From: an uncultured Candidatus Saccharibacteria bacterium
GTDB lineage: Bacteria > Patescibacteriota > Minisyncoccia > Phycocordibacterales > CAIZLB01
Direction: 5' to 3'
DNA: 64,000 nt
Assembly (NCBI GenBank): GCA_964627085.1
Contig: CAZVIP010000001.1
Span: 3,654 to 67,653 of the forward strand
Under the pieces are notes generated by a model that saw nothing but the letters and a program-made list of their open reading frames with translations, did no database searches and was not told the origin of the DNA. This document shows positions 3,087-59,834 of this stretch, piece after piece (within the stretch, counting starts at the first letter, position 1; every line of letters begins with the position of its first letter). The position numbers were made by a program, and so were the translations under genes.

Positions 3087-3293
3087 AGCAGCATTTTGTT
3101 AATTTTGAACAGAAGAAGGAAATGATATGTTTAAGGAAAGCGATTGCTCGCTATTCTCAAACTTTCTTAATTGATCAGGTGACGTTAGGTGCGAGGCGAA
3201 ATAATTATTTTCGACTGAGACGTACTGATTGTACGTTGAAGAAGAAAATGATTATTTTAACGAAGCAGATGACGTTGACTGGTCGATTAAGGG

Positions 3294-3650
3294 TTACATC
3301 ATTTTGACGTCGATATTCACTCCAGAAGGAAGCGAGAGATTCGTAAGAGCCTCTACAAGCTTTGCATTAGGATTGATGATATCAATAAGTCTTTTGTGTA
3401 CTCGCATTTCAAACTGTTCTCGCGCATTTTTGTAAATGAACGTTGAACGGTTGACTGTGTACTTTCGAATTTCTGTTGGAAGTGGGATTGGTCCGACAAC
3501 CTCTGCATCGTAGCGAAGTGCTGTATCCATGATCTGTTTGATAGATGCATCGATAATCTTAGATTCGTACGCGCGTACTCGAATTCGAAGTTTTGGTACA
3601 ACTTCTTCTTTTCCGATTGTTTTCTTTTTTGTCGCTTCTTTTACAGCCAT
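3294..3650 (-). CDS. rpsJ: 30S ribosomal protein S10
   Basis: S10 core ([12 protein letters not shown]...GPIPLPT...). ATG at 3650 is chosen ([10 protein letters not shown]); the longer ORF to 3671 would start on TTG. Confidence 0.9.
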
Positions 3651-5359: not shown

Positions 5360-7516
5360 TTACGCAGTAACCTTTCGAGATTCAACGATAGTCTTTTCTA
5401 CGTTTGGAGGAACGATATCGTAGTGATCGAATTCCATAGTCATAGAACCTCGTCCCTGTGTCATAGATCGGATATCAGTTGTATATCCAAACATTTCTGA
5501 AAGCGGAACCATGGCTCGGATGACTCGGAGTCCCTGACCTCTTTCTTCCATACCTTCAATCTGACCTCGCTTAGATGAAAGTGAACCTGTAACGTCACCC
5601 ATAAACTGTTCTGGCATTACACATTCTACCTTCATGATTGGCTCGAGGATAACAGGTCGTGCTCGCTTAGCAGCTGCCTGGAAAGCCTGAGAACCAGCAA
5701 TCTTGTACGCAATTTCAGATGAGTCAACATCGTGGTATGAACCGAAAGTAAGTTCACAAGACACATTTGTAAGTGTGAATCCTGCAACAATACCTCTGTC
5801 CATAGCCTCTTTGACACCCTTTTCAACTGCAGGGATAAATTCAACTGGAATAACACCTCCCTTGATAGAGTCGATAAATTCGAATCCTTCTTCTCGGTGT
5901 ACGTTCTTTGGAATTTTCGCACCTTCCTCAAGTTTTTCGAGTGGCTTGATAGTGATCTTTACGTGACCGTACTGACCCTTACCTCCAGACTGCTTGATGT
6001 ATTTGTATTCTTCTTCTGCAGAGCCTGTGATTGTTTCTCGGTATGCTACCTGTGGCTTACCTACGTTTGCTTCTACATTAAATTCTCGCTTCATTCGGTC
6101 AACCATAATTTCAAGGTGGAGTTCTCCCATACCTGAAACAATAGTTTCTCCTGTTTCAGTATTTGAAGATACTCGGAAAGTTGGATCTTCATCCATAAGT
6201 TTCTTGAGAGCCATACCCATCTTTTCCTGATCAGCCTTTGTTTTTGGCTCGATCTTGAGGGACACTACCGGTTCTGCGAATTTGATTGGATCGAGAACAA
6301 TTGGATTAGCTTCATCACAGAAAGTATGTGAAGTTTTTGCATCCTTGAGACCTACAGCAGCTGCAATTTCACCAGCGTATACTTTCTTTACTTCTTCTCG
6401 CTTGTTAGCCTGAAGTCGCACGATTCGTCCTAGTCTTTCCTTTGTGCCAGTTGTTGAGTTATAAAGGTATGAACCAGCTTCGACTGTACCTGAATACACA
6501 CGGAAGAATGTAAGCTGACCTACGAATGGGTCGTTTTGTAGTTTGAAAGCAAGTGCAGCAAACGGTTCTGTATCAGAAGCCTTTCGCTCAATTTCTTCAC
6601 CGTTGTCTGGGTTAAGACCCTTAACTGGCGGTACATCGAGTGGGCATGGAAGATAGTCAACTACAGCATCGAGTACGAGCTGTACACCCTTGTTTTTAAG
6701 AGCAGTACCTGTGAATACTGGGAATACTTTGTTTGCAATAACACCTTTTCGCATAGCAACCTTGATCTGATCAACACTGAAATCAGTCTTACCCTCTAGA
6801 TATTCATTCATCATTGATTCATCGAATTCACATGCCTTTTCAACAAGTTCAGCTCGGTATTTTTCAGCATCAGCCTTCATATCTTCTGGAACTTCACCTT
6901 CTACTACCTGTGAACCCATCTCCCCTTCGAATCGGTATGACTTCATCTTGATGAGGTCTACTACACCTTCGAAATCTGACTCAGCACCAATTGGAAGCTG
7001 CATTCGGATAGCATTTTTGTTGAGTCTATCGAGGATAGATGCATATGATCGCTCAAATGAGGCACCCATACGGTCGAGCTTGTTGATGAAACAAATTCGA
7101 GGTACATGATACTTGTCAGCTTGTCGCCATACTGTTTCAGACTGTGGCTCTACACCGGCTACACCGTCAAATACCACTACTCCACCATCGAGTACTTTGA
7201 GTGATCGCTCTACTTCTACGGTAAAGTCTACGTGACCTGGTGTGTCGATAATGTTAAATCTCTGCATCTTTGAGATATCCTTACCCATATATGTTGGGTT
7301 CCAGAAACAAGTAATCGCAGCGGCTGTGATAGTAATACCACGCTCCTTTTCCTGTTCCATCCAGTCAGTTACAGCTTCACCTTCGTGTACTTCACCAATC
7401 TTGTGGCTCATACCTGTATAGTAAAGAACGCGCTCAGACGTTGTAGTCTTACCCGCATCGATGTGGGCGATAATACCGAAGTTTCGTACTCTTTCTAGTG
7501 GATAGTCTCTATTCAT
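5360..7516 (-). CDS. fusA: Elongation factor G
   Basis: 718 aa. [17 protein letters not shown] and EF-G domains II-V. Confidence 0.97.
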
Positions 7517-7722
7517 ATAATGATTAATTTTTTATTAAAATAATTTGCTTTTCTCAGAACTGTGATTATTATTGCTTGATTATTAAGTAATCACTAGGTG
7601 ACTACGAAACATAATTTCAGCAGAAACTATATAGACGAGCGATAATAATCACAATCCTGAATGTTTGCTTAAATTATCATGTATTTTGCTAATTTGCAAT
7701 GTTTTTCAGGTAGAATAATTGA

Positions 7723-7757
7723 AAAAACAGACCATTTGCAGGGTCTGTTTTTTCTAT
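7723..7757 (-). terminator. Intrinsic terminator after the inserted Cys-rich protein gene
   Basis: Hairpin aacagaccatttgcagggtctgtt followed by a T-run on the coding (minus) orientation. Confidence 0.6.
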
Positions 7758-7829
7758 TATTTAGCCTTTTTTCATCCTTTGGATATACAAGTGGGTACTT
7801 TAGCGTAGATTTATCTACCCGGACGACAA

Positions 7830-9446
7830 TTAATGCTCGATAATTGCTGGTAGTGCACCGCATTTATTGGGCACAGAGCTAGATTGTAGGTCAATCCACT
7901 CCCCAGCAGTATCTAGCTTATATTGCTGCGTACAGGTCAGTGTATGTGATCCGATAGGTAAATTATATGGAGGATCTATGTTTATAATCTTGTTTGAAGG
8001 GACCGAAACCGAACTGCCAGCACTCTTCATCTCACAAATAACCCTTGAATCTACAGATCCCTCTGGTCTTTGCGCTTCAGTCATCTCATTTGTCTGCCAA
8101 TACCCACCACAGAGCGTAGTTGCTTGGTTTTTAGGTATTTCACCTGGTTTTAGTTTAAAATAATCAATTACCTTTGAGCAGGTATAACACGTACCATTAC
8201 TGTTTATACAATACTCCCTCTGGTCAACGACAGTTCCACTATCTGATAGCCGACAATCACAATTCTCACTCTCTGGGATACATTTATCCTTTGAAGTACA
8301 GAAGTATTCACCAGTCATACATCTTGCCTTGCATAAAGCAGGGTCTATTGCATCTGGGTTTTTGCATTGCCATCTCCAACTACTATATGCAGGGCTAAAA
8401 TCCCAGGTTGGCTCACCGTCATCCAAAAGCCCAAGTACACTACCCACTGCACATAACTGATTACCTGTAATATATTCACCCGCTGGAGTAGTTGTTGATA
8501 TAGAACCTCCTGCTGGTAGCTGATAATCAAGTGATTCCCTGTAAATTTCAGTACCTGCAGCCTGGCCACAATATGATTTTGGACATTCGTTCATATTACT
8601 CACGCACATATAACTTGTCATTGGCATCTGATCACCGCAATAGAATTGACCAGCATTGCAATCAACTCTTTCAAAAGGACATGATGCTTTTACTGTAGTG
8701 TTACCTTTTGTTGCTGACACTTCTACAACGGCTGAGTTGGTCGCATTGTAATAAGTATGTTCATAAGTTGGATTTCCAGGATTATCAACACCTTCGACAT
8801 TCCAGACAAAACTAAAATCTTCCGTTGGTGTAGTAGTACCCGATATTACAGCTGTGAACTGTACAGGTTCACCAAGCACACCAGTACCTGGATCGACAGT
8901 GCATGATAGGCTTGCATCACTAATTCTGACTGCATCACACTCGACTGTACCGCCACCAAAAATTCCTGCACATGCCCATTCATATGAATCATCATTTATT
9001 CTAAGATCTATTGCAGATCCGACCCGACATAAATTTGTTGCAGGAAAAGATGTTCGTGGTGTTGTTGTAGCTGAACCACACTTGCCATTTATACCCCCAA
9101 CAATAGTTGCGCTATACCTATGTACGTTTCCACAACCCAAACCCCATTCCATTGAAAGTGCAGCTGGCCCAATTCGATCAATGGTCTCACTCTGGATTAA
9201 TGCACAGCCCCATGACGGCCATGAGTTCTTTCCACACACTCTTGTATACGTCGCGCTCCCCGAAACATTGTATGTGATATTATCTTTCACCACAGTGTAC
9301 TGACATGAATGTGTATAACGACATTCTTTTGGTTTCTTTTTTGAACCCCTCGCTTCAGCTGTATTAATAGAAAATACAGTTGTGAAAAAGAGCACAAACA
9401 GCGCGAGTATAAAAACACGAGACAGTTTATTGTATTTCATATTCAT
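7830..9446 (-). CDS. Secreted Cys-rich protein with a PKD-like domain (hypothetical)
   Basis: 538 aa with an N-terminal signal/TM segment and more than 40 Cys. Central segment FTAVISG...FSFVWNVEGVDNPGNPTYEHTYYNATNSAVVEVSATKGN fits the PKD/Ig-like pattern. Confidence 0.7.
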   Translation of the reverse strand: MNMKYNKLSRVFILALFVLFFTTVFSINTAEARGSKKKPKECRYTHSCQYTVVKDNITYNVSGSATYTRVCGKNSWPSWGCALIQSETIDRIGPAALSMEWGLGCGNVHRYSATIVGGINGKCGSATTTPRTSFPATNLCRVGSAIDLRINDDSYEWACAGIFGGGTVECDAVRISDASLSCTVDPGTGVLGEPVQFTAVISGTTTPTEDFSFVWNVEGVDNPGNPTYEHTYYNATNSAVVEVSATKGNTTVKASCPFERVDCNAGQFYCGDQMPMTSYMCVSNMNECPKSYCGQAAGTEIYRESLDYQLPAGGSISTTTPAGEYITGNQLCAVGSVLGLLDDGEPTWDFSPAYSSWRWQCKNPDAIDPALCKARCMTGEYFCTSKDKCIPESENCDCRLSDSGTVVDQREYCINSNGTCYTCSKVIDYFKLKPGEIPKNQATTLCGGYWQTNEMTEAQRPEGSVDSRVICEMKSAGSSVSVPSNKIINIDPPYNLPIGSHTLTCTQQYKLDTAGEWIDLQSSSVPNKCGALPAIIEH

Positions 9447-32892: not shown

Positions 32893-33096
32893 AGCATTTT
32901 TGTTTGTGTATTCTAAAGGAGCATCAAGGTGACAAGGGTAGCAAATGTCTATATGCAGCCATATTTTATTGATCTTTCGCAATCTACCCGGTGACAAGTT
33001 TTGTCAGGCTTTGATTGTGATAAATTAACACCTTTCTCCGAAAAAAATATAGGACGAACGCACACATACGTCAAAGTGTTGACACATATTGACAAC

Positions 33097-33855
33097 ATGT
33101 ATACCATATCAGTCATGGAACTCCTAACGGAAAAAGAAAAACAAATACTGGCCTCTTTATACAAAAATGGCTCAAGTCCAATTAGTAAAATCGCTAAGGA
33201 TACCCTCATAAATAGAACAGCCCTCTATCACACCTTTGATCTATTAATTAAAAAAGGGTTAATCAACAAAAGCATTCGGGAGAACACTTCATACTTTGCA
33301 CCCCTACCACTACCTGAATTTAGAGAATGGCTCAAAAAGCAAAAAAGCCAACTAGAAAAAGAAACCGACTCACTAAGTCAGTGGTCAAAAAATGTTAAGC
33401 AAAACTCGGGCGACAACCTTCAGACCGAAATCAAATACTATTCGGGTATTGAGGGGATGGAATATCTATATGCGGATGGCCTCAGGGATAATCCAGGAAA
33501 AGAAATCCTAGCCATTACAGACTACGATAAAGCTTATACAGAATTTAAAGGCTTCTTTGAGAATGAATATTTCCCTACCCGCGTAAAAAAAGGTATCCAT
33601 GTAAAAAGCATCGTGTCCGAAGATTCACCAGCAGGTAAAAAAGATATATCGAGAAAACAAGATCTTCTACGTCAAATGAAATTTGCAAACATATTCAAAG
33701 ATTTAGGCATCGAGCTCAACATATACAATGACAAGGTCTCTATCATTTCTCTTGATAAAAAGAACCCGACCGGCATCATCCTTAAAAACAAAATCATAAA
33801 CAATGCCTTTAGAGAGATCTTTAATTTTATTTGGAAGAATTCAAAAAGTAGGTAA
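33097..33855 (+). CDS. TrmB-like winged-HTH transcriptional regulator, paralog 1
   Basis: N-terminal TrmB-type HTH (EKQILASLYKNGSSPISKIAKDTLINRTALYHTFDLLIKKGLI). C-terminal domain shared with the five paralogs below. Hairpin terminator at 33880-33925. Confidence 0.7.
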   Translation: MYTISVMELLTEKEKQILASLYKNGSSPISKIAKDTLINRTALYHTFDLLIKKGLINKSIRENTSYFAPLPLPEFREWLKKQKSQLEKETDSLSQWSKNVKQNSGDNLQTEIKYYSGIEGMEYLYADGLRDNPGKEILAITDYDKAYTEFKGFFENEYFPTRVKKGIHVKSIVSEDSPAGKKDISRKQDLLRQMKFANIFKDLGIELNIYNDKVSIISLDKKNPTGIILKNKIINNAFREIFNFIWKNSKSR

Positions 33856-33952
33856 AAAGTAGGCAAATTTGCTCAATCCAGACGTTATAATACCCGCCCA
33901 AATTGCTCGGGGCGGGTATTTGATTTGTGTCGGTGCTGTTGCACCGATGATT

Positions 33953-34387
33953 TTAGCGCGCGAACCGGGCAAGCCGGTTGCGTCGGGCGTTTGCCTGGCG
34001 CGCGGTGTGGAAGGTGACAAACATCACACCAACAGCTAAAACGTCAAAGAGAAAGACGGTGCCTAACATTGCCTTGTGCACGATATTGGCATAACTGCCA
34101 TTACCATGCAGTTGGACTGACTTGCGAACCATCTCCCCGACACAGCCGGTGAAAAAAGTTGCAGCCAAGACTGAGAAGCATGTTAGGAGAAAGTCAACCT
34201 CCTGCCGATTGAACATCGGCACTTTCGGCTGACTTGCTTTCAACTCTGCCTCATAGACGGCGCGGTCTTCTGCTACTCGGCGAGCAATCTCTGCGGGAGA
34301 GAGAAACTTTACACGGATCTTGACGGTCTGCTTTTTAAGGGTGTCGCCTGAATTTTTTGGCCGTGATTGGTCATCGAACTGATTCAT
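33953..34387 (-). CDS. Hypothetical membrane protein, high-GC (foreign-looking) gene
   Basis: 144 aa. Soluble N-terminal region followed by two predicted TM helices. Local GC is about 55-60% against about 38% in neighbours. Confidence 0.5.
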   Translation of the reverse strand: MNQFDDQSRPKNSGDTLKKQTVKIRVKFLSPAEIARRVAEDRAVYEAELKASQPKVPMFNRQEVDFLLTCFSVLAATFFTGCVGEMVRKSVQLHGNGSYANIVHKAMLGTVFLFDVLAVGVMFVTFHTARQANARRNRLARFAR

Positions 34388-38157: not shown

Positions 38158-38461
38158 ACTGATTTTCTAGGTTTCTGAGTTTTTGTTGTTTCTGGTTAGA
38201 CACGAAGCAGTTCAATGTCAAAGAACTTTGCCTCCTTTTATTCAATTGGTACCAACCAACTGAATTTAGAGACAACAATAGAATAACTGTGTCAATAGTA
38301 TATTCAAACATCATAAATGCTGTTTTGCATTCAGGGACTATATATAAGGCTATTGCGGATATCTTTATTTTTGTCAAAAATATTGACTAAATTTAGATTG
38401 AGTATAAAATAGGGTAAAAGGCGCAAAAACACGGAAATTTGATCAAAAATTCACCTAGAAT

Positions 38462-39257: not shown

Positions 39258-40016
39258 TTAAGCGAGCATACTCACTCCCACAATCGCCGCAGTCTCTGCT
39301 CTTAAAACAAATTGCCCGAGTGCAAGTGGTGTGATATTTTCTTTCATAAATAATTCAATCTCTTCATCTGTCCATCCGCCTTCTGGGCCTATAAATATTG
39401 CTTTGTTCTTTGTTTCTTTTAAATCTACTTTAATATTTTCATTTGAAATGTGACCGAAGAATACTGCATTATTTGTTTTCTTTGCGAGAACAATTGCATC
39501 TTTGAGTTCTATGATTTCACCAATGACAGGTATATCCATTCGTCCGCTCTGCTCACTTGCTTCTATTGCAAGTTTATTTAGACGCTCGAAATTAAGGCCT
39601 GACTTCACTGTTCGCTCTGTCATAACCGGGATAATTGATGTGACACCAAGTTCAGTTGCCTTTTCTACAACTAGATCAAAATTACTATTTTTAATAATTG
39701 CCATATAAAGTGTGGTGTGTGTTCGGGGTAAATTACCAAGCTCAGTTGAAGCCGCTCTGTCTTGTTCTACCCATGTAAGCACAGCACCTTTTTTGCGCTC
39801 AAGAGAAATAAATTCTGCAAGCCACTCTCCTATTTTTTCATTATAAATAAGCACCCTGTCGCCTTTGCTCATTCTAAAAATATCTCTCCACTGATGGATG
39901 AGTTGTTCTTCACGTCCATGTCCCTCACTATTAATACCTGTTGTTTCAAAGCCAATACGAAATTCAGCCCCAACCTCTGGTGAAAAATCCGCCAAATAAA
40001 ATCGATGTAGTCGCAT
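39258..40016 (-). CDS. rsmE: 16S rRNA (uracil1498-N3)-methyltransferase RsmE
   Basis: MRLHRFY N-terminus, PUA-like N-terminal domain, IGPEGGWTDEE and RAETA SPOUT motifs. Confidence 0.88.
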   Translation of the reverse strand: MRLHRFYLADFSPEVGAEFRIGFETTGINSEGHGREEQLIHQWRDIFRMSKGDRVLIYNEKIGEWLAEFISLERKKGAVLTWVEQDRAASTELGNLPRTHTTLYMAIIKNSNFDLVVEKATELGVTSIIPVMTERTVKSGLNFERLNKLAIEASEQSGRMDIPVIGEIIELKDAIVLAKKTNNAVFFGHISNENIKVDLKETKNKAIFIGPEGGWTDEEIELFMKENITPLALGQFVLRAETAAIVGVSMLA

Positions 40017-40068
40017 ATGTCACTATCATGCAGGATTTGGCGATGAATTGCAAAAGTTAATAACAAAT

Positions 40069-40914
40069 CTATTTATCCAGTTTTGCATTCCATGACAACT
40101 CAAAAATCATTTTCATTAGCCCGTGTATTGTTTTGTCTTCGATTATTACACCAGTGAAATTATCATCTTCGAGATTCACTATTGAGACCTTGTTCTCGCC
40201 GTATATTGTTATTTCTGCGTTATACGCAAAGATACCTGCTGGGACGAATTTCATCAATGGTATAATCGACTCCTTAAAACCGTCATAGTTTCGCGCGGTA
40301 AAACCCTTATCACTTTCTGTCTCTGGGACAATTGCTCTAGTTGCAATACCCATACGTTCTTTTTCTCTGCGATATTTTTTAAAAAAATTGTCGGGAAGGG
40401 CTTGCTCGAGCTTTGTCGCATTTGCCCAAGCGAGCATTTCATATGCAACTTCAACTTGAATATGATCTTCATATACATTGATAACCCCGTCTATTCCTTG
40501 ATAATAAGTTACTTTCGGCCTCTCTGTTTTATGCATCAAATCTTGAATAATCGGCAGGATGGTTTGTGCTTGATTGATTTCATCTTGAATAAGGGACAGC
40601 TTTGACTTTGTATACTTGAGTAGCTTGGACGGGTTCTCTAGCTGATAAAATAGTTTATTCTTTTTTTCCACCTCATTTACAACCCCCTTTACCGACATTT
40701 GGAGCAATAACGAATACACAGTACCCCTCTTAATGCCCGTGTATTCAGCAATCTTTGATGGAAAGGCCCCTCCAAGTTCCAATAAAGCCAGATAAATCAG
40801 TGATTCCTTCTCATTTAAACCAGATTTTTGAAGTTTTTTAAGCAGGATCTCATTCTTGATTTTCATGATTAAATTATAATTTTTTAGGTTACTTTTGTCA
40901 ATTTGTTCTGACAA
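40069..40914 (-). CDS. TrmB-like winged-HTH transcriptional regulator, paralog 3
   Basis: EKESLIYLALLELGGAFPSKIAEYTGIKRGTVYSLLLQMSVKGVV HTH. Shared C-terminal domain ending FELSW. Confidence 0.7.
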   Translation of the reverse strand: MSEQIDKSNLKNYNLIMKIKNEILLKKLQKSGLNEKESLIYLALLELGGAFPSKIAEYTGIKRGTVYSLLLQMSVKGVVNEVEKKNKLFYQLENPSKLLKYTKSKLSLIQDEINQAQTILPIIQDLMHKTERPKVTYYQGIDGVINVYEDHIQVEVAYEMLAWANATKLEQALPDNFFKKYRREKERMGIATRAIVPETESDKGFTARNYDGFKESIIPLMKFVPAGIFAYNAEITIYGENKVSIVNLEDDNFTGVIIEDKTIHGLMKMIFELSWNAKLDK

Positions 40915-41059
40915 AAATATATTTATTCAATAATATTGTTTATATAAGCCATATTATGGATTCTTATTGATATTCTTGCACAATACTATTTACAATACTG
41001 TATATTTGTTGCAGAAAAGAACAAGCCGTTCTTTCCACAACCAAAAACCCAAAATCAGT

Positions 41060-41710
41060 ATGAAAAAGAAAAGATTGCTAGATGACAATAGCTTTGGACC
41101 AGAGATCAGCTCTAATGTAATCCCTGGCCAGATCCGGAAAACCACAGATCCAGATCAAATACATATTGATCACGGAGAGGATTATCGACCACCTACCCGT
41201 GATATACGTGCTGTATCTTTCTTTGTATGGATCCATAAAATGATCAATGCAAGGAAACTGACAGAAAACACAAGCCTCAGGCGGAAGCTCCTGGACGGAA
41301 GAAGGCTCGCAAGCTACTTTGACGGACTGCAAGAAGATGAGGTGTATGAAAAATTCCTTCAACTACACCACTTTGCCAACGATTTATCAGATAGCTCAGT
41401 GGATGAGGAGCGGTTTAAAGCGCTGAAAAACTTTGCTTGCTCGGCATTTAAAGATCTGTCACAAACCAGACACCCAGATGCGATGCATGTCTTTCGCAAA
41501 ATACAATCCAAGACGTTCTGCGAAGAAAATCTGTTTGTATGGCTTGAAGAGGCAAGTTCGAAAACACATCGCAAAGGGGCTGCCACAGGAACAATTCACA
41601 TTAGTGACCTAAGTAAATTCACAGATATGCTGAATTGCGAGAGTGACCCACCCGAAACACCAGCAAGGTCACCTTACGAAGTCTGGCTACTGATAGCACC
41701 CGAACACTAA
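41060..41710 (+). CDS. Hypothetical protein (partner of TrmB-like paralog 3), moderately elevated GC
   Basis: Start at MKKKRLL. No known family. Divergent to paralog 3. Confidence 0.5.
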   Translation: MKKKRLLDDNSFGPEISSNVIPGQIRKTTDPDQIHIDHGEDYRPPTRDIRAVSFFVWIHKMINARKLTENTSLRRKLLDGRRLASYFDGLQEDEVYEKFLQLHHFANDLSDSSVDEERFKALKNFACSAFKDLSQTRHPDAMHVFRKIQSKTFCEENLFVWLEEASSKTHRKGAATGTIHISDLSKFTDMLNCESDPPETPARSPYEVWLLIAPEH

Positions 41711-41799
41711 AAGCTTATATCTTCGAACACCTCTTGTTGCATTCGTGCAGCAAGAGGTGTTTTACCTATACACAAAACAGAAGAAAATTGGTTTTGAGA

Positions 41800-42627
41800 T
41801 CAGAAAGAATTGTCAATTTTATTTGCACACATCCCCCAGGCAATATCAAAAACCATTTTTATCATACCGTAAAAAGCCTCATCTTCGATAACTACCCCTA
41901 TAATCTTCTTATCTTCATGTTGTTTTCCTAGTTTGAACATTGCTATTTTATTTTTTCCATACAACGTCATTTCGCTTGCCCAAGGAAAGATTTCCTTGTT
42001 GACTTTCCTGATCTGAGGAAAGTATCTTGTATTCTTCATAAAACCATATACGTTCTCGGCAAAAGAGTTTCCGTACTTATCATCAGGGACAAGTGCGCGC
42101 ATGGTAATTTTTTGCGACAATTTACCTTTTGTAAACTCAGATTGCTCCTGTTTAGAAAGATACCCATCAAAAGCCTTTGCATTGAATATTGTGGACATCT
42201 CATAATTTTTATACCTGAGCATGTCAAAATATATTTCTTTGATTTCACTATATCCATTGAAAATGGATATTTTAGGCAATGCTCCGAAAGAAGAAAACAA
42301 CTCCGTAAGATGAGGAATAGCTTTTTTAATTCCGGCCATTTTTTTATTAAAATCTTTATGTTGATATTCGATATAACTCAATAGTTTTTCAGGTGAAGAT
42401 AATATGTAAAAAACTTTTTTATTTTTCTCTACATCAGAAACCAAACCTTTGATAGCAAGAGACGTGAGTGTCTTGTAGCATGTACTCCTGTTTATATGAG
42501 CCTCTTTAGCAATTGCTGAGGGAAAACCTTGTCCACCCAGCCTAAACAATGAGACGTAAACTATTTTTTCTTTGTCAGATAATCCCATATTCTCCATTTG
42601 TTGTACGAGATATTTGAGTGTTTGCAT
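41800..42627 (-). CDS. TrmB-like winged-HTH transcriptional regulator, paralog 4
   Basis: DKEKIVYVSLFRLGGQGFPSAIAKEAHINRSTCYKTLTSLAIKGLV HTH. C-terminus ends FDIAWGMC, as in paralog 5. Confidence 0.7.
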   Translation of the reverse strand: MQTLKYLVQQMENMGLSDKEKIVYVSLFRLGGQGFPSAIAKEAHINRSTCYKTLTSLAIKGLVSDVEKNKKVFYILSSPEKLLSYIEYQHKDFNKKMAGIKKAIPHLTELFSSFGALPKISIFNGYSEIKEIYFDMLRYKNYEMSTIFNAKAFDGYLSKQEQSEFTKGKLSQKITMRALVPDDKYGNSFAENVYGFMKNTRYFPQIRKVNKEIFPWASEMTLYGKNKIAMFKLGKQHEDKKIIGVVIEDEAFYGMIKMVFDIAWGMCANKIDNSF

Positions 42628-42834
42628 ATGTTTAATATACTACCATATTGTTCGTTTGTGCGAACAAGAATCTCTTATACATAGAATACCCTTATACATA
42701 AACATATAATCCATCAGTATTGTATGAATACAGTAACAGATTGTGTAATCCATGCTTATCTACACCTTGGATTGAGTCCACCTATCTACGACTAACTAGC
42801 AGTAGATATATAGTCACAACAAAATATACATATT

Positions 42835-43422
42835 ATGAACGTAAAAAAATACCCATCCCAAGAATCACTCAGCAACGCCCTGGCAGATATCAGTTCCATC
42901 TTCCCTATCCACATGGACACCAATACATCTTTTACCCATTGCAATCAAGGTTTAGTAGAGAAAAATCCTGCAGTATTGGTCCCAGTATTCAGTGGCTTGG
43001 CTCCCGAGACACCTCCCAATTGCCGGCCAGCTACCTTTGAGGAATTAATTGCCTTTAGCGAGGAGTGTGAATTCGAATCTGATGAAGACAGCGAGGAGAG
43101 CCCAGGTTCCCGACTTATTAAAGACACCGCAGGTATCATCCTTGCAACTGGAACAAAACTCTATAAGCTAGGTGAAAATATCGAAGGCTTATTCCCTTCA
43201 TTTATCCCCTTCTTCTACCCAAAAAGAAGCTGGAAATTCTGGGGTCGAGGCTATTCACCTAAATTCGAAAGGTCTTTCTCACTTTTACAAAACAGCGGAA
43301 GACTCAACATTCTTCAACTGATCGAAAGTTTGACTGACCCTAGAACATTAAAACACCCCACTTGGTTCAAGGATGATTCGGGTATAGACAGCATTCCAAG
43401 GGTGTTGTATATCAAAACATAG
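42835..43422 (+). CDS. Hypothetical protein (partner of TrmB-like paralog 4)
   Basis: 195 aa with no known family. Two hairpin terminators follow (about 43440-43495 and about 43505-43545). Confidence 0.5.
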   Translation: MNVKKYPSQESLSNALADISSIFPIHMDTNTSFTHCNQGLVEKNPAVLVPVFSGLAPETPPNCRPATFEELIAFSEECEFESDEDSEESPGSRLIKDTAGIILATGTKLYKLGENIEGLFPSFIPFFYPKRSWKFWGRGYSPKFERSFSLLQNSGRLNILQLIESLTDPRTLKHPTWFKDDSGIDSIPRVLYIKT

Positions 43423-43679
43423 TGTTTTCTTGCCCTCCTATTTATTTGATATATACAAGTGTTGATATCAAATAAAATGGGAGGGCTTTATCTTTTTCAC
43501 ACTAATCAACGACCCAAGCGAAAGCTGGTGGGTCTTTTTTTGTTAACATAATATTTATCAATTGCTGACATAGATCGTGCAATCCACACAAATAAATCGG
43601 CCCAACCTAATATATCCGACTGCAACACTCGAAGAAGATATGAGTAGAAAAAATATTTAATGCTAAAATCAAATTAACC

Positions 43680-44016
43680 ATAGGACGTTTGATGCTTGAA
43701 CCTCCGATTTGGTTTCTAGCGCTGAAGCCACCAGGTTATCTTTTTTCCATGGTCTAGTCAGAGAAAAAAGGTTCTTGACCACCAATCTTGAGCCCAAAAA
43801 AGCGCCTCACCCGACGTTAGAGGGTCTGAAATTGTAATGCGGACCCGCTCTAGTTAATGTAAGCAACCCACCCTTCTGTAGTTATCTACTAAACAAGCAT
43901 CTGAATAAGGAAGCCAGTGGACTTACATTAACTAGGCGGGACGCTTTAGGACTCAAATTTGCACATTGTTTTGAACATAATTCATTCCAGACCGGACCTT
44001 TGTTCGGTCTTTTTTA
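43680..44016 (+). ncRNA. Candidate structured non-coding RNA (about 330 nt) of unknown class, ending in an intrinsic terminator
   Basis: No ORF of 60 aa or more across 650 bp. Extended -10 element (TGcTAAAAT) near 43660-43672. A 13-bp perfect long-range helix (tagttaatgtaag / cttacattaacta) is nested in a longer stem. Terminator hairpin agaccgg...cggtct plus T6 at 43989-44016. Confidence 0.3.
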
Positions 44017-44068
44017 TAAGGTCACAAACTGTGACCTTAGTGAAAACTTAGGAGTTAATCACAATGAA

Positions 44069-44833
44069 TTAAACACACATCCCCCAGGCAAACAAAAACA
44101 CCTGCTTGAACATATTTGAAATTGTTGGTGATGTGATAGTTACCGCATATACATGACCGTCTTTGAGTGAAAAAAGAGCCACACGCTCATCTGCAATAAT
44201 CATTGTCGAATGAAACATATGCTGTGCAGGTAAAAATCTAACCTCGCGGAACTGGTCATTTGTATATGCAGACAGACCAAGATCCTTTGCAAAATCAGGT
44301 GCGAGTAGATGTGTGAAAATTTTAAGCTTGTTTTTTCGAGCGAGCACAGCTGGCAGATACTTTGGGAAATATTCCAATAACTCCGGATGTGAAATTGTAT
44401 ATAAATTTCGATCGTCCCGAGTTTCAAGCATGTCATATAGACCCCCGATAATATCTTTTATCGAATCTTTTCCTTCATAAAACCTTACTTCTGGCTGTGG
44501 CCCAGACTTTTGCATCATAGATTCCAACTCTGGAAATATCTCTTTTATCTTTTCTGCCTTTTGCTCTGCACTTTTGACGAGACGCCTCGGATGCTCTGCA
44601 AACCAATATGCGACCTGATTTTTCTTAAAAATACCCACCAAATTAAGCTTTTTGAGTCTTTCGAGGTCATTGTAAACAGTAGTTCTTGGGAAATTGACCT
44701 GTTTTGAGATTTGAAAAACAGTCTGATCCTTATTAGCGAGGAGATATAGATAAATAGCAATCTCACGTTCATTGAGGCCAAATTCGAGTAGATTTTGGGT
44801 TAAAGAGTCTTGTGTCATAAATATGGACAACAA
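44069..44833 (-). CDS. TrmB-like winged-HTH transcriptional regulator, paralog 5
   Basis: EREIAIYLYLLANKDQTVFQISKQVNFPRTTVYNDLERLKKLNLV HTH. C-terminus FLFAWGMCV. Confidence 0.7.
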   Translation of the reverse strand: MLSIFMTQDSLTQNLLEFGLNEREIAIYLYLLANKDQTVFQISKQVNFPRTTVYNDLERLKKLNLVGIFKKNQVAYWFAEHPRRLVKSAEQKAEKIKEIFPELESMMQKSGPQPEVRFYEGKDSIKDIIGGLYDMLETRDDRNLYTISHPELLEYFPKYLPAVLARKNKLKIFTHLLAPDFAKDLGLSAYTNDQFREVRFLPAQHMFHSTMIIADERVALFSLKDGHVYAVTITSPTISNMFKQVFLFAWGMCV

Positions 44834-44901
44834 TAGTATATATAATATATGGCTATGTGTAAAGCTATTCGTGTGTTTATATTTCTAGACTGCCATTTTT
44901 T

Positions 44902-45468
44902 ATGACACATATTGACTATAGTAGTATTCTATTGTGTAGAACAAATCCGTTCTTCACAAACAACAAAAACACAACAAATAGAAATCAAGACAATATGACT
45001 CACTCAAAATTACTCGCCAGCATGCTTTTCGCTGAAAAAGACTATGTGATGGGAATTTACTGTAAGGGTAAGTTTTACATTCATTGGAATTTCGAAGCCA
45101 GTACAACTCAGCCATTAACAGGCACTCTTCCAGACGGTAAAACTTGGACATCTGAACCCCTAGGGGAATTGCACTCGTCCGTGTCTTTGTTGCATGAATA
45201 TGCAGACAAAGAATTCAGAATGGCAACTATCAGAAAAAAGGACTTGCTAGCCGATGGGACTCTGGTTAAGGTAGACCTCTATTTCGATGCAATCCTTGAT
45301 ACAGCGGGTTTAAGTGACAACGACAAACATTTTGCTGAAATCCCAAAGGAAGTTTTGACTCTGCTAGACGAAGGAAAGGATCCCTGCGTTGAAGAGTGCG
45401 GGAGTAGTATCAACACCGTGCTCATCCCCTTCGACTTTACCAACGTGGTCTTAATTGGCTACGAATAA
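44902..45468 (+). CDS. Hypothetical protein (partner of TrmB-like paralog 5)
   Basis: ORF with no known family. The true start may be the internal ATG near 45000 (MTHSKLL). Hairpin terminator at 45480-45525. Confidence 0.5.
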   Translation: MTHIDYSSILLCRTNPFFTNNKNTTNRNQDNMTHSKLLASMLFAEKDYVMGIYCKGKFYIHWNFEASTTQPLTGTLPDGKTWTSEPLGELHSSVSLLHEYADKEFRMATIRKKDLLADGTLVKVDLYFDAILDTAGLSDNDKHFAEIPKEVLTLLDEGKDPCVEECGSSINTVLIPFDFTNVVLIGYE

Positions 45469-45610
45469 ATGCGAAGGGTCACCAAAGTAACAAACATAGC
45501 CATCCGCATTCAAGCGGATGGCTATTTCTTTTATTAAAAACCCAGACTTGGTCCTCAGTCGTTATGATTATCAATCTTGCAAACCCCTCATTTTCCCTTA
45601 TAATCAAGCC

Positions 45611-46183
45611 ATGTTAATACCAACAGTAATCGAAAAATCACAATTCGGGGAGCGAGCATATGATATATACTCTCGCCTACTTCGAGAAAATATTATTTTC
45701 CTAGGAGGACCAATTGATGACAATGTCGCGAATATTGTCATTGCGCAACTTCTCTTTCTCCAATCTGAAAATCCAAAAAAAGACATCAGTCTCTATATCA
45801 ACTCACCTGGAGGATCTGCTTCTGCAACCCTTGCAATGATTGATACGATTAATCATATCAAGAATGATGTATCTACCATTTGTATCGGCATGGCAGCTTC
45901 TGGAGGCGCATGGCTTCTCTCAGCGGGCACAAAAGGCAAGAGATATGCTCTTGCAAACTCTGAGGTTATGATTCACCAACCACTCGGTGGTGCAGAAGGT
46001 CAGGCTACAGATATCGAGATTACTGCCAAGCACATCGTTGGGCTCCGCAAGCGACTTGCTGAAATTATGGCAAAGAATACTGGCCAGAAGTTTGAAAAAG
46101 TTCAGCAGGATCTAGAGCGAGACTTCTTTATGTCTGCAGATGAGGCAAAGAAATACGGTATCATCGATAAAGTCCTCAGCTAG
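45611..46183 (+). CDS. clpP: ATP-dependent Clp protease proteolytic subunit ClpP
   Basis: NSPGGSASA (Ser), MIHQP (His) and D catalytic triad context. Start at MLIPTVIE. Terminator at 46236-46265. Confidence 0.92.
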
Positions 46184-48975: not shown

Positions 48976-49248
48976 ATGAACAAAGCAGCACTCGTAGACA
49001 AAGTACACGAAGCACTAGGATCAACAAAGGTTCAGGCTGAATCTATTGTTGACTTGATTTTCGATACAATCACAGGGTCTTTGAAAAAAGGCAATGAAGT
49101 ATCAGTAGCAGGCTTCGGTATCTTCTCTGCAAAGCAGCGAGCCGCTCGTTCAGCTCGAAACCCTCGAACTGGCGAAATGGTAAAGGTTGCAGCTATGAAG
49201 GTTCCAAAGTTCAGAGCCGCTAAGGCTTTGAAGGACGCAGTTAAATAA
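48976..49248 (+). CDS. hup: DNA-binding protein HU
   Basis: 90 aa. MNKAALVDKV...GFGIFSAKQRAARSARNPRTGE...VPKFRAAKALKDAV. Terminator hairpin at 49318-49358. Confidence 0.93.
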   Translation: MNKAALVDKVHEALGSTKVQAESIVDLIFDTITGSLKKGNEVSVAGFGIFSAKQRAARSARNPRTGEMVKVAAMKVPKFRAAKALKDAVK

Positions 49249-49565
49249 TCTGCAATCACCTTCCTATCACCAATTTTGGTGATTTTAGAGAATATGCTCG
49301 CGGTTAGCGACAATCATTCTCAACAAAAAAACTCCGACACCACTCGGAGTTTTTTTGTTTTTTGTAAGCAATATTACTTACCCCGAACTCCCTACAGACA
49401 AAGATACTCTTGGTGTTGATTTGTAATGAAATTGATAAGGAAATAAGGAGGGTCTAAAAGCGGAGGTAAAGTAAAAACACCCAGAGCTCCGAGGAGATAG
49501 GTGTTGGTTGAAAGTTTTAAGAGAATTGAACTCTACGGTTGCTTCACCGGGTGGGTTTACCACCA

Positions 49566-49928: not shown

Positions 49929-50141
49929 ATTTTTTCAAGGTTAAGTGTAGTAAAAGGATTTAATCCGCTTGGCGATTGCCAGCAGGTCGACTATCTCCTT
50001 TCTCCTACACTCAACTTTGGCACCCTTCAATGAACTTGACTTTCTGGTATAAGTATAGCCTAATAATGGTATTTAGTCAATACCTATTGACTACCAAATT
50101 TTTGACCTTTACAGTATATAAATAAAAGCTAAAATTAATGC

Positions 50142-50912
50142 ATGTCAAAAATCTTTGACCAAAATACCACTAATACTGTGAAGGAGCTTTGCACCTTAGG
50201 CCTAACTGAGAAGGAGGCTTTGGTGTATCTAGCTCTTTTACCCCGTCGCGACACAGGCTCTTCCAAGCTGGTACTTGCCACCGGATTACACAAGCAGTTT
50301 GTCTACAATGCCTTAGGAAAGCTGGAGGGACTAGGTCTCGCAAAGCACGTAATTCAGAACGGGCGCAAGAAGTTCAGCGCCAACACCCCTCAACGCATCG
50401 TGAGTCTGATTGAGGAGAAAAGGGTCGCGGCAGGACGCCTAGCAGCAGAACTTCAGAAAAAATATATCGGAGCACATGATCAGGATGCAGAAATATTTCA
50501 GGGTGATAACGCTTTTGTCATGCACCAAATGAACAACATCGAGAGAGCACCTGAAGGAGCTACGCTATGTGTTATAGCAAGTGCGTCAGAACGCTATGGC
50601 GCAATTTTGCGTGAGCACGACCTTTGGGATGAATTTGAACGAATCCGAAAATCAAAAAATATTGCTATAAAATACCTGGGTTCGGAATCTCAACTTGAAA
50701 CCCTCAAAAGCAGAATGAGTGATGAAAAACCTTGGGAATATCGTATTCTTCCTGGCCACGCAACAGGACTCATGAATACTGACATTTGGGATGACCATGT
50801 AACATTCAATATATTTGGTGAACCGGTCCTTTCCATAACTATTACAGGTAAAGAAATCACCGATGGTTATCGACAATTTTTTGACACACTTTGGAAACTA
50901 GGGAGAATTTAA
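50142..50912 (+). CDS. TrmB-like winged-HTH transcriptional regulator, paralog 6 (elevated GC)
   Basis: EKEALVYLALLPRRDTGSSKLVLATGLHKQFVYNALGKLEGLGLA HTH. C-terminus FFDTLWKLG. Confidence 0.7.
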   Translation: MSKIFDQNTTNTVKELCTLGLTEKEALVYLALLPRRDTGSSKLVLATGLHKQFVYNALGKLEGLGLAKHVIQNGRKKFSANTPQRIVSLIEEKRVAAGRLAAELQKKYIGAHDQDAEIFQGDNAFVMHQMNNIERAPEGATLCVIASASERYGAILREHDLWDEFERIRKSKNIAIKYLGSESQLETLKSRMSDEKPWEYRILPGHATGLMNTDIWDDHVTFNIFGEPVLSITITGKEITDGYRQFFDTLWKLGRI

Positions 50913-58839: not shown

Positions 58840-59187
58840 ATGTTAACAAAGTCTAAAAAACAGCGAATTATTAAAGGCGTGCAGGTACACGACACTGATA
58901 CTGGCTCTCCAGAAGCACAGGTTGCTTTGATCAGCGAACAAATTGAGGAACTTACAAAACACCTTAAGAAACACCTCAAAGATAACAGTTCACGAAGAGG
59001 TCTTCTACAACTTGTAGCAAACAGACAGTCACACCTTAAATACCTACAAAAGAAAGATCCAGCAAGATACACTGAACTTATCACTAAGCTTGAACTCAAG
59101 CGAAAGGATACTTCAAAGAAGGCTGATGCTCCAGCAAAAACAGTTAAAGCAAAGGCAAAAGCCGCTAAAGCTGCAAAGAAGAAATAA
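58840..59187 (+). CDS. rpsO: 30S ribosomal protein S15 with Lys/Ala-rich C-terminal tail
   Basis: S15 core (HLKKHLKDNSSRRGLL...) followed by the tail KKADAPAKTVKAKAKAAKAAKKK. Hairpin terminator at 59192-59235. Confidence 0.9.
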   Translation: MLTKSKKQRIIKGVQVHDTDTGSPEAQVALISEQIEELTKHLKKHLKDNSSRRGLLQLVANRQSHLKYLQKKDPARYTELITKLELKRKDTSKKADAPAKTVKAKAKAAKAAKKK

Positions 59188-59303
59188 TAAAAAATCAAAA
59201 ACATACTCAGCTGGAGTATGTTTTTGATTTTTTATTCATCTATCTTATGAACAGCTAATCGTTTTTTCAAATATTTTAAAAATAAGTTTGATATAATTTA
59301 AAT

Positions 59304-59834
59304 ATGTCAGTTATAAAACACAAAGAACAGCGTGTTGGTATTTTTATAGATACACAAAACCTATACCACAGCGCCAAGAATTTATATAGAGCACGAGTTA
59401 ATTTTGGTGCAATCATGAAAGAAGCAATAGCAGGGAGATCACTCATCCGTGCGATTGCCTATGTTATTACCACAGAAACAAATGAAGAGAAAAGTTTTTT
59501 TGATGCGCTAGGAAAACTAGGTATTGAAACAAAAACTAAAAATCTTCAGATTTTCGGCGATGGTGCAAAAAAGGCAGACTGGGATGTTGGTCTTGCAGTT
59601 GATGCAATTAAATTAGCCCCAAAACTAGATACGATTATCATTGCATCAGGTGACGGTGATTTCATTCCACTTGTTGAATACTTGAGAACAAATCAAGGTT
59701 GCCAAGTAGAGGTAATCGCCTTTGGAAGATCATCTTCTTCAAAGCTAATTGAATACGCAGACGACTTCATCGATATGTGCGATAACCCACGAAAGTTTGT
59801 TATGGGACGAGGTCAACCTGGACACGGAAATTAA
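59304..59834 (+). CDS. NYN-domain (LabA-like, PIN-related) protein
   Basis: VGIFIDTQNL...IIASGDGDFIPLV pattern of the NYN/LabA family. Confidence 0.7.
   Translation: MSVIKHKEQRVGIFIDTQNLYHSAKNLYRARVNFGAIMKEAIAGRSLIRAIAYVITTETNEEKSFFDALGKLGIETKTKNLQIFGDGAKKADWDVGLAVDAIKLAPKLDTIIIASGDGDFIPLVEYLRTNQGCQVEVIAFGRSSSSKLIEYADDFIDMCDNPRKFVMGRGQPGHGN

Follow-up and report, generated by a model that had tools for sequence, protein, structure and literature searches.

An ORF-free gap beside a TrmB-like regulator gene of a CPR bacterium: a putative strain-specific transcript or relic next to a predicted operator

Organization of the locus

The region described here lies in a 64-kb window, the whole stretch of DNA that was analysed, of which 92% is covered by open reading frames (ORFs) of at least 60 aa. 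Between 43423 and 44068 (646 bp) no ORF of this length occurs, as stated in the initial annotation, which had singled out the gap between 43422 and 44069 as free of such ORFs. No other interval in the window without an ORF of this size is as long, the second longest measuring 468 bp. The G+C content of the gap is 0.44-0.46, compared with 0.29-0.36 in the other spacers, and its sequence is 100% identical across 10 independent Logan assemblies of the same organism.

The gap forms the right-hand tail of an organism-specific segment of about 4 kb (about 40067-44052) located between rsmE (39258-40016) and the gene for TrmB-249. In order, the segment contains TrmB-281, an orphan gene of 216-247 aa, TrmB-275, an orphan gene of 195 aa (42835-43422) and the gap. 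Six TrmB-like winged-HTH paralogs with 21-31% mutual identity are found in the window; the TrmB-like proteins are 249-281 aa long and match the TrmB/TrmBL1 models over the N-terminal HTH only, with scores far below the cut-off. A search of 5.8 billion proteins returned no homologue of the 195-aa gene immediately upstream of the gap, and searches of the segment's orphan genes for defence, phage or NCBIfam annotations were negative. The segment encodes neither a recombinase nor a transposase and is flanked by a 12-bp direct repeat:

Positions 40055-40066, plus strand: left copy of the direct repeat, AGTTAATAACAA, matching the right copy at 11 of 12 positions.
Positions 44053-44064, plus strand: right copy of the direct repeat, AGTTAATCACAA.

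In four independent relatives that carry a TrmB-249 orthologue, alignment with the window is confined to positions from 44075 on. These relatives are L011 (about 92% nucleotide identity), L026/27, L028 and L029/30 (85%, 82% and 79% amino-acid identity, respectively). The next gene in L011, L026/27 and L028 is rsmE, and the alignment resumes at window positions 40025-40062. Since these three relatives join position 44075 to 40025-40062, about 4.0 kb is present only in this organism. A single related copy of the 12-bp repeat is found in L028. The more distant relatives L019 and L024 carry orthologues of TrmB-281 and TrmB-275 between rsmE and clpP, so that both insertion of the segment and its repeat-mediated deletion are possible; by either route, these alignments indicate that the segment is dispensable in close relatives. 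The relatives share 78-82% identity in a 720-aa housekeeping protein, and their submitters labelled them Candidatus Parcubacteria, Taylorbacteria, Patescibacteria or Saccharibacteria. Judged by these labels, the organism of the window is a CPR bacterium, apparently of Parcubacteria type.

DNA resembling the gap was not detected by blastn or nhmmer in 241 kb of sequence from relatives, whether at the loci of TrmB-275 orthologues or at those of TrmB-249 orthologues. A blastn search with 'distant' settings against PLSDB and INPHARED also gave no match, and an origin of the gap from a plasmid or phage was rejected. The covariation analysis with homologous spacers that the initial annotation had proposed was not possible because the gap has no homologue in the sequences searched: it is absent from all close relatives found, with no nucleotide, translated or structural match in these collections.

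Absence of coding signal

Coding potential was scored with a 3-periodic Markov model trained on the long ORFs of the window, in which genes of the window average +7.8 per 150 nt. All six frames of the gap scored negative. The best-looking of them reached -0.063 per nt, below the neighbouring orphan genes, which score about 0 per nt when left out of the training set. Gene calling placed no gene inside the gap in any of the 10 assemblies. Plus frame 2 is the most conspicuous, with open stretches of 46 and 93 codons separated by a single TAA; the 93-codon stretch runs across both the terminator T3 and the palindrome described below, so its length is not due to coding.

Searching 1.84 billion representative proteins with phmmer yielded no real homologue of the 93-codon frame. 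Its sole match, P0008, is an artefact in which the score is summed over seven identical 31-residue repeats at 29% identity. Five conceptual translations of the gap gave nothing in a Pfam scan, and tblastx of the gap against the DNA of relatives found no match. When all 169 ORFs of the window were compared with the gap by tblastn nothing was detected, and on this ground a pseudogene of a window paralog, ClpP and TrmB included, was rejected. The gap contains no tandem repeats and no TIGR- or CRISPR-like arrays. The region is non-coding, and neither a conserved small protein gene nor a decayed gene was found by Pfam, phmmer, tblastx or the coding model.

Terminators, promoter-like element and putative transcription unit

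The following features were located in the gap upstream of the palindrome:

Positions 43432-43498, plus strand: terminator T1, a long hairpin GCCCUCC...GGGAGGGC (43432-43486) followed by a U-rich tail.
Positions 43511-43541, plus strand: T2, a terminator-like hairpin (43511-43534), GACCCAAGC-GAAA-GCU..GGGUC, followed by U7.
Positions 43661-43669, plus strand: extended -10-like element TGCTAAAAT, with no convincing -35.
Positions 43676-44016, plus strand: putative transcription unit of about 340 nt, with no ORF, no coding signal and no Rfam match.
Positions 43839-43945, strand-symmetric: near-perfect palindromic hairpin of 107 nt, from inverted-repeat search and minimum free energy (MFE) folding.
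Positions 43989-44016, plus strand: T3, a canonical intrinsic terminator with a 9-bp stem (43989-44010), a CUUU loop and U6.

T1 (fold -30.5 kcal/mol, z = -8.3; entry I14 in the list of inverted repeats) ends the 195-aa orphan gene as its intrinsic terminator, and T1 and T2 (fold -13.1 kcal/mol, z = -2.3) together insulate the unit downstream. Both lie directly 3' of the upstream gene and are missing from the initial annotation. T3, the one terminator that had been reported there, was recovered by our terminator scan with nine pairs, a 4-nt loop and a T6 tail. It has no ORF or coding signal upstream and lies 570 bp past the previous gene, which has two terminators of its own. The gap thus holds three plus-strand terminators in a row, the last with no ORF in front, and T3 is a Rho-independent terminator of the kind expected of an sRNA gene, not attributable to any coding gene.

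The beginning of the unit is less clearly marked. TGCTAAAAT is present where an extended -10 promoter had been proposed; no site in the gap, on either strand, makes a better promoter candidate, and none but this one scores at least 8.5. As a motif, TGNTAWAAT is found at 8 places in the window, where 10.5 would be expected, and a scan of the window finds promoter sites at the score level of TGCTAAAAT about 2.3 times per kb per strand. A scan for sigma-70 promoters found no site in the gap region. Because the motif is as frequent as chance predicts and the sigma-70 scan is negative, a promoter at 43661-43669 is not statistically supported. We regard 43676-44016 as a putative unit, either a candidate strain-specific sRNA-like transcript or a relic. 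Target prediction with RNAduplex returned mostly unrealistic long interior loops and was discarded.

Fold strength and the palindromic hairpin

The whole unit (43675-44018) folds with an MFE of -101.3 kcal/mol (z = -4.1). Across 186 non-overlapping 344-nt windows the genome background is z = -0.79 ± 1.74, with a 5th percentile of -4.27, and the unit ranks about 7th among the 186 by z; this background covers the plus strand and was computed with 15 shuffles, which makes its z values noisy. Removal of T3 lowers the signal to z = -2.96, the 5' 125 nt of the unit give z = -0.85, and the minus strand gives z = -3.05. These sub-region scores trace the fold signal of the unit to one hairpin plus the terminator, and apart from T3 and this strand-symmetric hairpin the fold is ordinary. 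An RNA of about 330 nt with several long-range helices, as the initial annotation had envisaged, is therefore not supported.

The core of the hairpin is a perfect 14-bp inverted repeat, CTAGTTAATGTAAG / CTTACATTAACTAG (43850-43863 / 43922-43935), with a spacer of 58 nt, and it is the sole perfect inverted repeat of at least 14 bp with a spacer longer than 8 nt in the 64 kb. The helix is extended by CCCGC/GCGGG and GCG/CGC to arms of 23-25 nt, which are imperfect outside the core, and the inner part pairs CCAC/GUGG, CUUC/GAAG and GUAG-UUAU-CUAC. The perfect long-range pairing noted earlier is thus real but 14 bp long, not 13, and the outer GC stem and the small internal hairpin GUAG-UUAU-CUAC noted with it both appear in the MFE fold. 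The hairpin region (43838-43948, 111 nt) has an MFE of -42.8 kcal/mol and a z of about -6.3 on either strand. Since it folds equally on both strands around a perfect Watson-Crick core, a structure in RNA and a palindrome in DNA cannot be told apart by the fold. One copy of the hairpin occurs across the window and the 241 kb from relatives, where a covariance model built from it recovers nothing but the hairpin itself, and its arm pattern has no exact match in the JGI metagenome and IMG/VR collections.

Comparison with known RNA families

At gathering scores, Rfam identified four tRNAs only in the window, and at E <= 0.05 the whole window yielded the tRNAs, one spurious miRNA and nothing else. 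A permissive scan of 43300-44200 (900 nt, up to E = 10) gave nothing above 20 bits; the best matches scored 14-20 bits against gathering scores of 40-114, and all weak matches near the gap are terminator or hairpin look-alikes. No covariance-model match to bacterial RNase P RNA (RF00010/RF00011), with its P4 pseudoknot core and CR-I/CR-V, was found in 43300-44200. A tmRNA, with its tRNA-like domain and tag-peptide frame, was found neither by Rfam nor by ARAGORN, which reported 4 tRNAs in the window, and the remaining Rfam 15 families (6S, SRP, riboswitches, ribozymes and large ornate RNAs) gave no score near the family threshold. These results agree with the initial annotation, which had found none of the conserved motifs of RNase P RNA or tmRNA. 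If it is made, the candidate transcript lies outside every described RNA family.

The palindrome and a TrmB-type operator class

Two palindromes bear on the regulation of the locus:

Positions 44019-44037, both strands: perfect palindrome AGGTCACAAACTGTGACCT, that is, AGGTCACA-AAC-TGTGACCT, with the core GTCAC-N5-GTGAC.
Positions 44892-44906, both strands: imperfect palindrome GTCAT-N5-ATGGC (minus-strand reading) in the divergent promoter region of TrmB-249 and a cargo gene.

The first of these is perfect, as originally described, and can be written GGTCAC-AAACT-GTGACC. It lies 31 bp downstream of the TrmB-249 stop; the right junction of the 4-kb segment is 15 bp away. The pattern GGTCAC-N5-GTGACC is expected 0.06 times per window, in which the copy at 44019-44037 is the one perfect instance, and it recurs perfectly once each in the TrmB-249 loci of L014, L015 and L016 (0.01 expected). 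The relaxed pattern GTCAN-N4-6-NTGAC occurs seven times in the window against about one expected. Five of the seven sites are at TrmB-like paralogs (33070, 38373, 50076, 50144 and 44021), the first four of them at the paralogs' promoters, and in three of these promoters (33070, 38373 and 50076) the -35 hexamer coincides with the right half-site TTGAC. Additionally, when the TrmB-249 promoter regions of nine genomes are aligned, GTCAT-N5-ATGAC stands out as conserved some 75-85 bp before the start codon. Its counterpart in the window is the imperfect site at 44892-44906, a presumed autoregulatory operator that served as the comparator for 44019-44037.

The palindrome at 44019-44037 has the build of a TrmB operator, namely inverted half-sites of 5-6 bp, a 5-nt spacer and a TCAC/GTGA-type core, and its motif class recurs at the promoters of the cognate regulators. 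The conservation of GTCAT-N5-ATGAC, the recurrence at paralogs and the likeness to the archaeal motif discussed below support by comparison the earlier proposal that a TrmB-like paralog binds here; very probably, a protein of this family binds the palindrome. Its position is not that of an operator, as no promoter scoring at least 8 lies beside it on either strand. It is placed between T3 and the stop codon of TrmB-249, at convergent gene ends, and the copies in L015 and L016 are likewise flanked by convergent gene ends, with unrelated neighbours (SHMT, a PEMT-like methyltransferase and an M50 peptidase). The copies have perfect arms of 10-12 bp, the outer parts of which differ between loci yet remain complementary. 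A 3'-end position with covarying arm extensions would likewise be compatible with a hairpin in an RNA or a terminator, or with a REP-like element. Because it lies only 15 bp from the right junction of the segment, the palindrome may be an orphaned operator.

Interpretation of the gap

We tentatively favour, while holding it somewhat short of probable, a reading in which the gap is accessory, lineage-specific non-coding DNA at the end of the segment, from whose central part a strain-specific, sRNA-like transcript of about 340 nt would be made, with a TrmB-type operator beside it. The two tandem terminators would end the 195-aa orphan gene. A plus-strand unit of about 340 nt, probably transcribed, would then run from the weak extended -10 element to T3, with the 107-nt hairpin as the only strong structure of the resulting RNA. 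Beyond it, between the convergent ends, GTCAC-N5-GTGAC would serve as an orphan or auxiliary operator for a TrmB-like regulator, most likely TrmB-249, which is encoded next to it, or one of the paralogs. We infer the binding by a TrmB paralog from the recurrence and conservation of the motif class, and the transcription of the unit and its strand from a lone plus-strand terminator, the sole promoter-like site scoring at least 8.5, at the right distance and on the same strand, the high G+C content, the hairpin z of -6.3, the unique inverted repeat and the lack of coding signal and of protein homologues. The anatomy of the gap, its lack of coding signal and its absence from relatives are direct observations, as is the class of motif to which the palindrome belongs. 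Against this reading stand the chance-level promoter, the missing homologue, the dispensability of the region in close relatives, a minus strand that folds almost as well, a hairpin made up solely of Watson-Crick pairs, and a whole-unit z at about the 5th percentile of the genome.

A stronger version of the same proposal seems unlikely to us. It would make the unit a structured, strain-specific sRNA of about 340 nt, acquired not long ago and travelling as non-coding cargo within a hypervariable array of TrmB-like regulators and orphan genes, together with a working paralog operator. The palindrome would then insulate or control the sRNA, and GTCAN-N4-6-NTGAC would represent a paralog-specific 'operator code' for the expanded bacterial TrmB-like family in these Parcubacteria.

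It is a serious possibility, though on balance a doubtful one, that the gap is instead inert debris of gene turnover in a hypervariable locus, with T3, the weak promoter and the palindrome as leftovers of a lost cargo gene and of a lost TrmB-type promoter belonging to an earlier setting of the segment. From one genome to the next, TrmB paralogs are paired with unrelated small genes, and a different one is present even in the relative at about 92% nucleotide identity, where the switch to another small gene occurs at the start codon. The gap itself is missing from all close relatives, its G+C content resembles that of coding DNA, the 46 and 93 codons of plus frame 2 are interrupted by one stop, and the palindrome sits 15 bp from the junction with no usable promoter or gene beside it. 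Against this reading, all frames lack a coding signal, scoring clearly under the orphan genes, and no frame has a homologue. The 93-codon frame owes its length to something other than coding, given its course through the terminator and the palindrome, and a 14-bp inverted repeat and two hairpins that are still perfect would be unexpected in old debris.

The strand symmetry of the 107-nt palindrome raises the prospect, which we consider improbable, of an element acting at the DNA level, either a recombination or transposition site or a MITE-like sequence tied to the insertion or excision of the 4-kb segment. Its arms of 23-25 nt with a perfect 14-bp core are fully symmetric, the segment is flanked by the 11/12 direct repeat, and of 10 copies of the heptamer AGTTAAT in the 64 kb, 4 coincide with the two repeats at the junctions and the two arms of the hairpin. 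This last coincidence was noticed post hoc, with a rough p of 0.002-0.16. The segment nevertheless lacks a recombinase or transposase, the hairpin is single-copy in the window and the 241 kb from relatives, and no target-site duplication surrounds it. Integron attC sites carry 5'-RYYYAAC ... GTTRRRY-3' cores at the stem base, have extrahelical bases and lie at the 3' junction of the cassette. The hairpin shows the opposite order, GTTAATG...CATTAAC, its 14-bp stem is free of bulges and extrahelical bases, and the junction is 105 bp away; identification as an attC site was rejected.

A small protein gene or recent pseudogene is very improbable. The candidates would be a 42-aa ORF with a TTG start (43709-43837), a 21-aa ORF with an ATG start (43692-43757) or a gene in frame 2 with one stop. 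Frame 2 is unusually open, and genes in this genome lack Shine-Dalgarno sequences, so their absence in the gap is no argument against coding. The coding scores are strongly negative, however, no gene was called in any of the 10 assemblies, no homologues were found, and the sequences around the candidate starts do not resemble those at the starts of other genes. Finally, a highly divergent housekeeping RNA (RNase P RNA, tmRNA, 6S or SRP), an option kept by the initial annotation, has size alone in its favour and is effectively refuted by the lack of any Rfam match in 900 nt up to E = 10 or of a tmRNA in ARAGORN, and by the absence of the locus from relatives at 92% nucleotide and 79-85% protein identity.

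Significance

A new functional RNA in the gap is unproven, and the best-supported positive result is the operator class predicted for the palindrome. If the transcript is real, it would be among the first candidate sRNAs described in a CPR/Parcubacteria genome and an example of strain-specific non-coding cargo in a fast-turnover locus; in kind it would be an ordinary orphan sRNA delimited by a terminator, found in an unusual host. The operator class is the more durable result, as it provides a testable DNA motif for an expanded and uncharacterised bacterial branch of TrmB-like regulators and would link that branch to the archaeal architecture. For genome scans the locus offers the lesson that 'ORF-free plus hairpin plus terminator' is insufficient alone, since the background z-scores and the absence in relatives removed most of the apparent signal of a large structured RNA.

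Comparison with known systems

RNase P RNA and tmRNA resemble the putative unit in length (about 330-340 nt); the unit differs from both in having no conserved motifs and no covariance-model or ARAGORN match, at a locus that is dispensable in relatives. Strain-specific, trans-encoded sRNA genes delimited by terminators are a general class in bacterial accessory islands. Like these, the unit is a few hundred nt of non-coding sequence bracketed by a promoter-like element and a Rho-independent terminator in variable DNA. Unlike them, it has no conservation, identified target or Hfq/ProQ-type features, and its sole strong structure is a symmetric hairpin.

REP/BIME- and MITE-like elements also form stable palindromic hairpins in spacers between convergent genes, and, as in these elements, the GGTCAC-N5-GTGACC core is conserved while the arm extensions are variable but complementary at each locus. 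In contrast to such elements, the palindrome is very sparse, at one per 64 kb, no RAYT or transposase was seen, and the 107-nt hairpin is single-copy in everything searched.

The Thermococcales glycolytic motif (TGM), TATCAC-N5-GTGATA, is bound by the TrmB-family regulators TrmBL1 and Tgr (PMC4158304). It differs from the palindrome in its outer bases (TA/TA, against GG/CC here) and in its archaeal rather than bacterial (CPR) host. The palindrome, a predicted operator, lies at a gene 3' end and not in a promoter, and the window proteins match TrmB/TrmBL1 over the N-terminal HTH only. Despite these differences, both motifs consist of inverted 6-bp half-sites around a 5-nt spacer with the identical inner core TCAC-N5-GTGA, and both are found beside genes for TrmB-family winged-HTH proteins, regulators that are autoregulated, here presumably, through such sites.

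Genomic segment and its junctions

A segment of about 4.0 kb (about 40067-44052) is missing from contigs L011, L026/27 and L028 of relatives, in which rsmE adjoins the gene of TrmB-249, one of several TrmB-like winged-HTH paralogs named here by length in amino acids. The segment holds TrmB-281, an orphan of 216-247 aa, TrmB-275, a 195-aa orphan and the ORF-free gap, and it is bracketed by a direct repeat with 11 of 12 positions matching (AGTTAATAACAA at 40055-40066, AGTTAATCACAA at 44053-44064). Either an insertion or a repeat-mediated deletion may have produced the difference from the relatives.

At their 3' ends, the genes of TrmB-275 and TrmB-249 carry the same 18-nt stretch, CACACATCCCCCAGGCAA (41826-41843 and 44074-44091), encoding AWGMC in two proteins that are just ~25% identical, and its right copy begins at the breakpoint with the relatives. 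This stretch may reflect gene conversion or be a recombination substrate.

Two Logan contigs end within the segment. L012 (1423-1441; window 43458) stops exactly at the apex of the hairpin that follows the 195-aa orphan gene and continues into Illumina adapter sequence (AGATCGGAAGAGCACACGT), and L013 stops where the 3' arm of the 14-bp repeat begins, at 43923. Both ends fall at palindromes and are probably artefacts of the assembly or of the fragments.

Cargo genes and palindromes of the TrmB-like paralogs

Each TrmB-like paralog lies beside a small divergent (cargo) gene, and these genes are unrelated from genome to genome, some carrying a Clp_N domain and others being orphans:

Window: 44995-45468, 42835-43422, 40967-41710
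Relatives: L011 2-445; L019 9374-9826; L022 3438-3920; L024 7340-7807

In a relative with ~92% nucleotide identity, similarity ends at the cargo-gene start codon (window 44998). Coding-model scores are near zero for the window orphans. Start codons of window genes have A/T-rich surroundings (..ATATTATGA..), and no Shine-Dalgarno sequence is recognisable upstream of most of them (e.g. 42835, 44818, 42627, 48297).

Palindromes of the form GTCAN-N4-6-N'TGAC sit in the paralog promoter regions:

33070-33083
38373-38387
50076-50091
50144-50159
44892-44906

At 33070, 38373 and 50076 the right half-site, TTGAC, is also the -35 hexamer; this overlap and the placement of the palindromes suggest autorepression and a paralog-specific operator code.

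Folding regions and terminators

Further 344-nt plus-strand intervals equal or exceed the candidate in fold strength, and several overlap spacers with long perfect terminator-type hairpins, such as a 23-bp stem at 59186-59236:

45409-45752, z = -7.9
33713-34056, z = -5.5
59169-59512, z = -5.2
3097-3440, z = -4.5
49193-49536, z = -4.4

Among the strongest z-scores in the window is also that of 7569-7912 (z = -7.6), overlapping a 313-bp spacer (7517-7829) upstream of a 720-aa housekeeping gene (5363-7531, minus strand). The spacer contains:

7554-7588/7626-7660, inverted repeat with 35-nt arms
7714-7761, hairpin

It had no match in Rfam; a role as leader or regulatory RNA is possible.

Most terminators of the window are A-run/stem/T-run hairpins, for which bidirectional use is possible. 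In a relative (L016, 17510-17590), as in the window, an intrinsic terminator precedes the GGTCAC-N5-GTGACC palindrome, its stem (CGGACC...CGGTCC) resembling that of the window terminator at 43989-44016 (CCGGACC...TTCGGTC). Terminator and palindrome may form a conserved composite.
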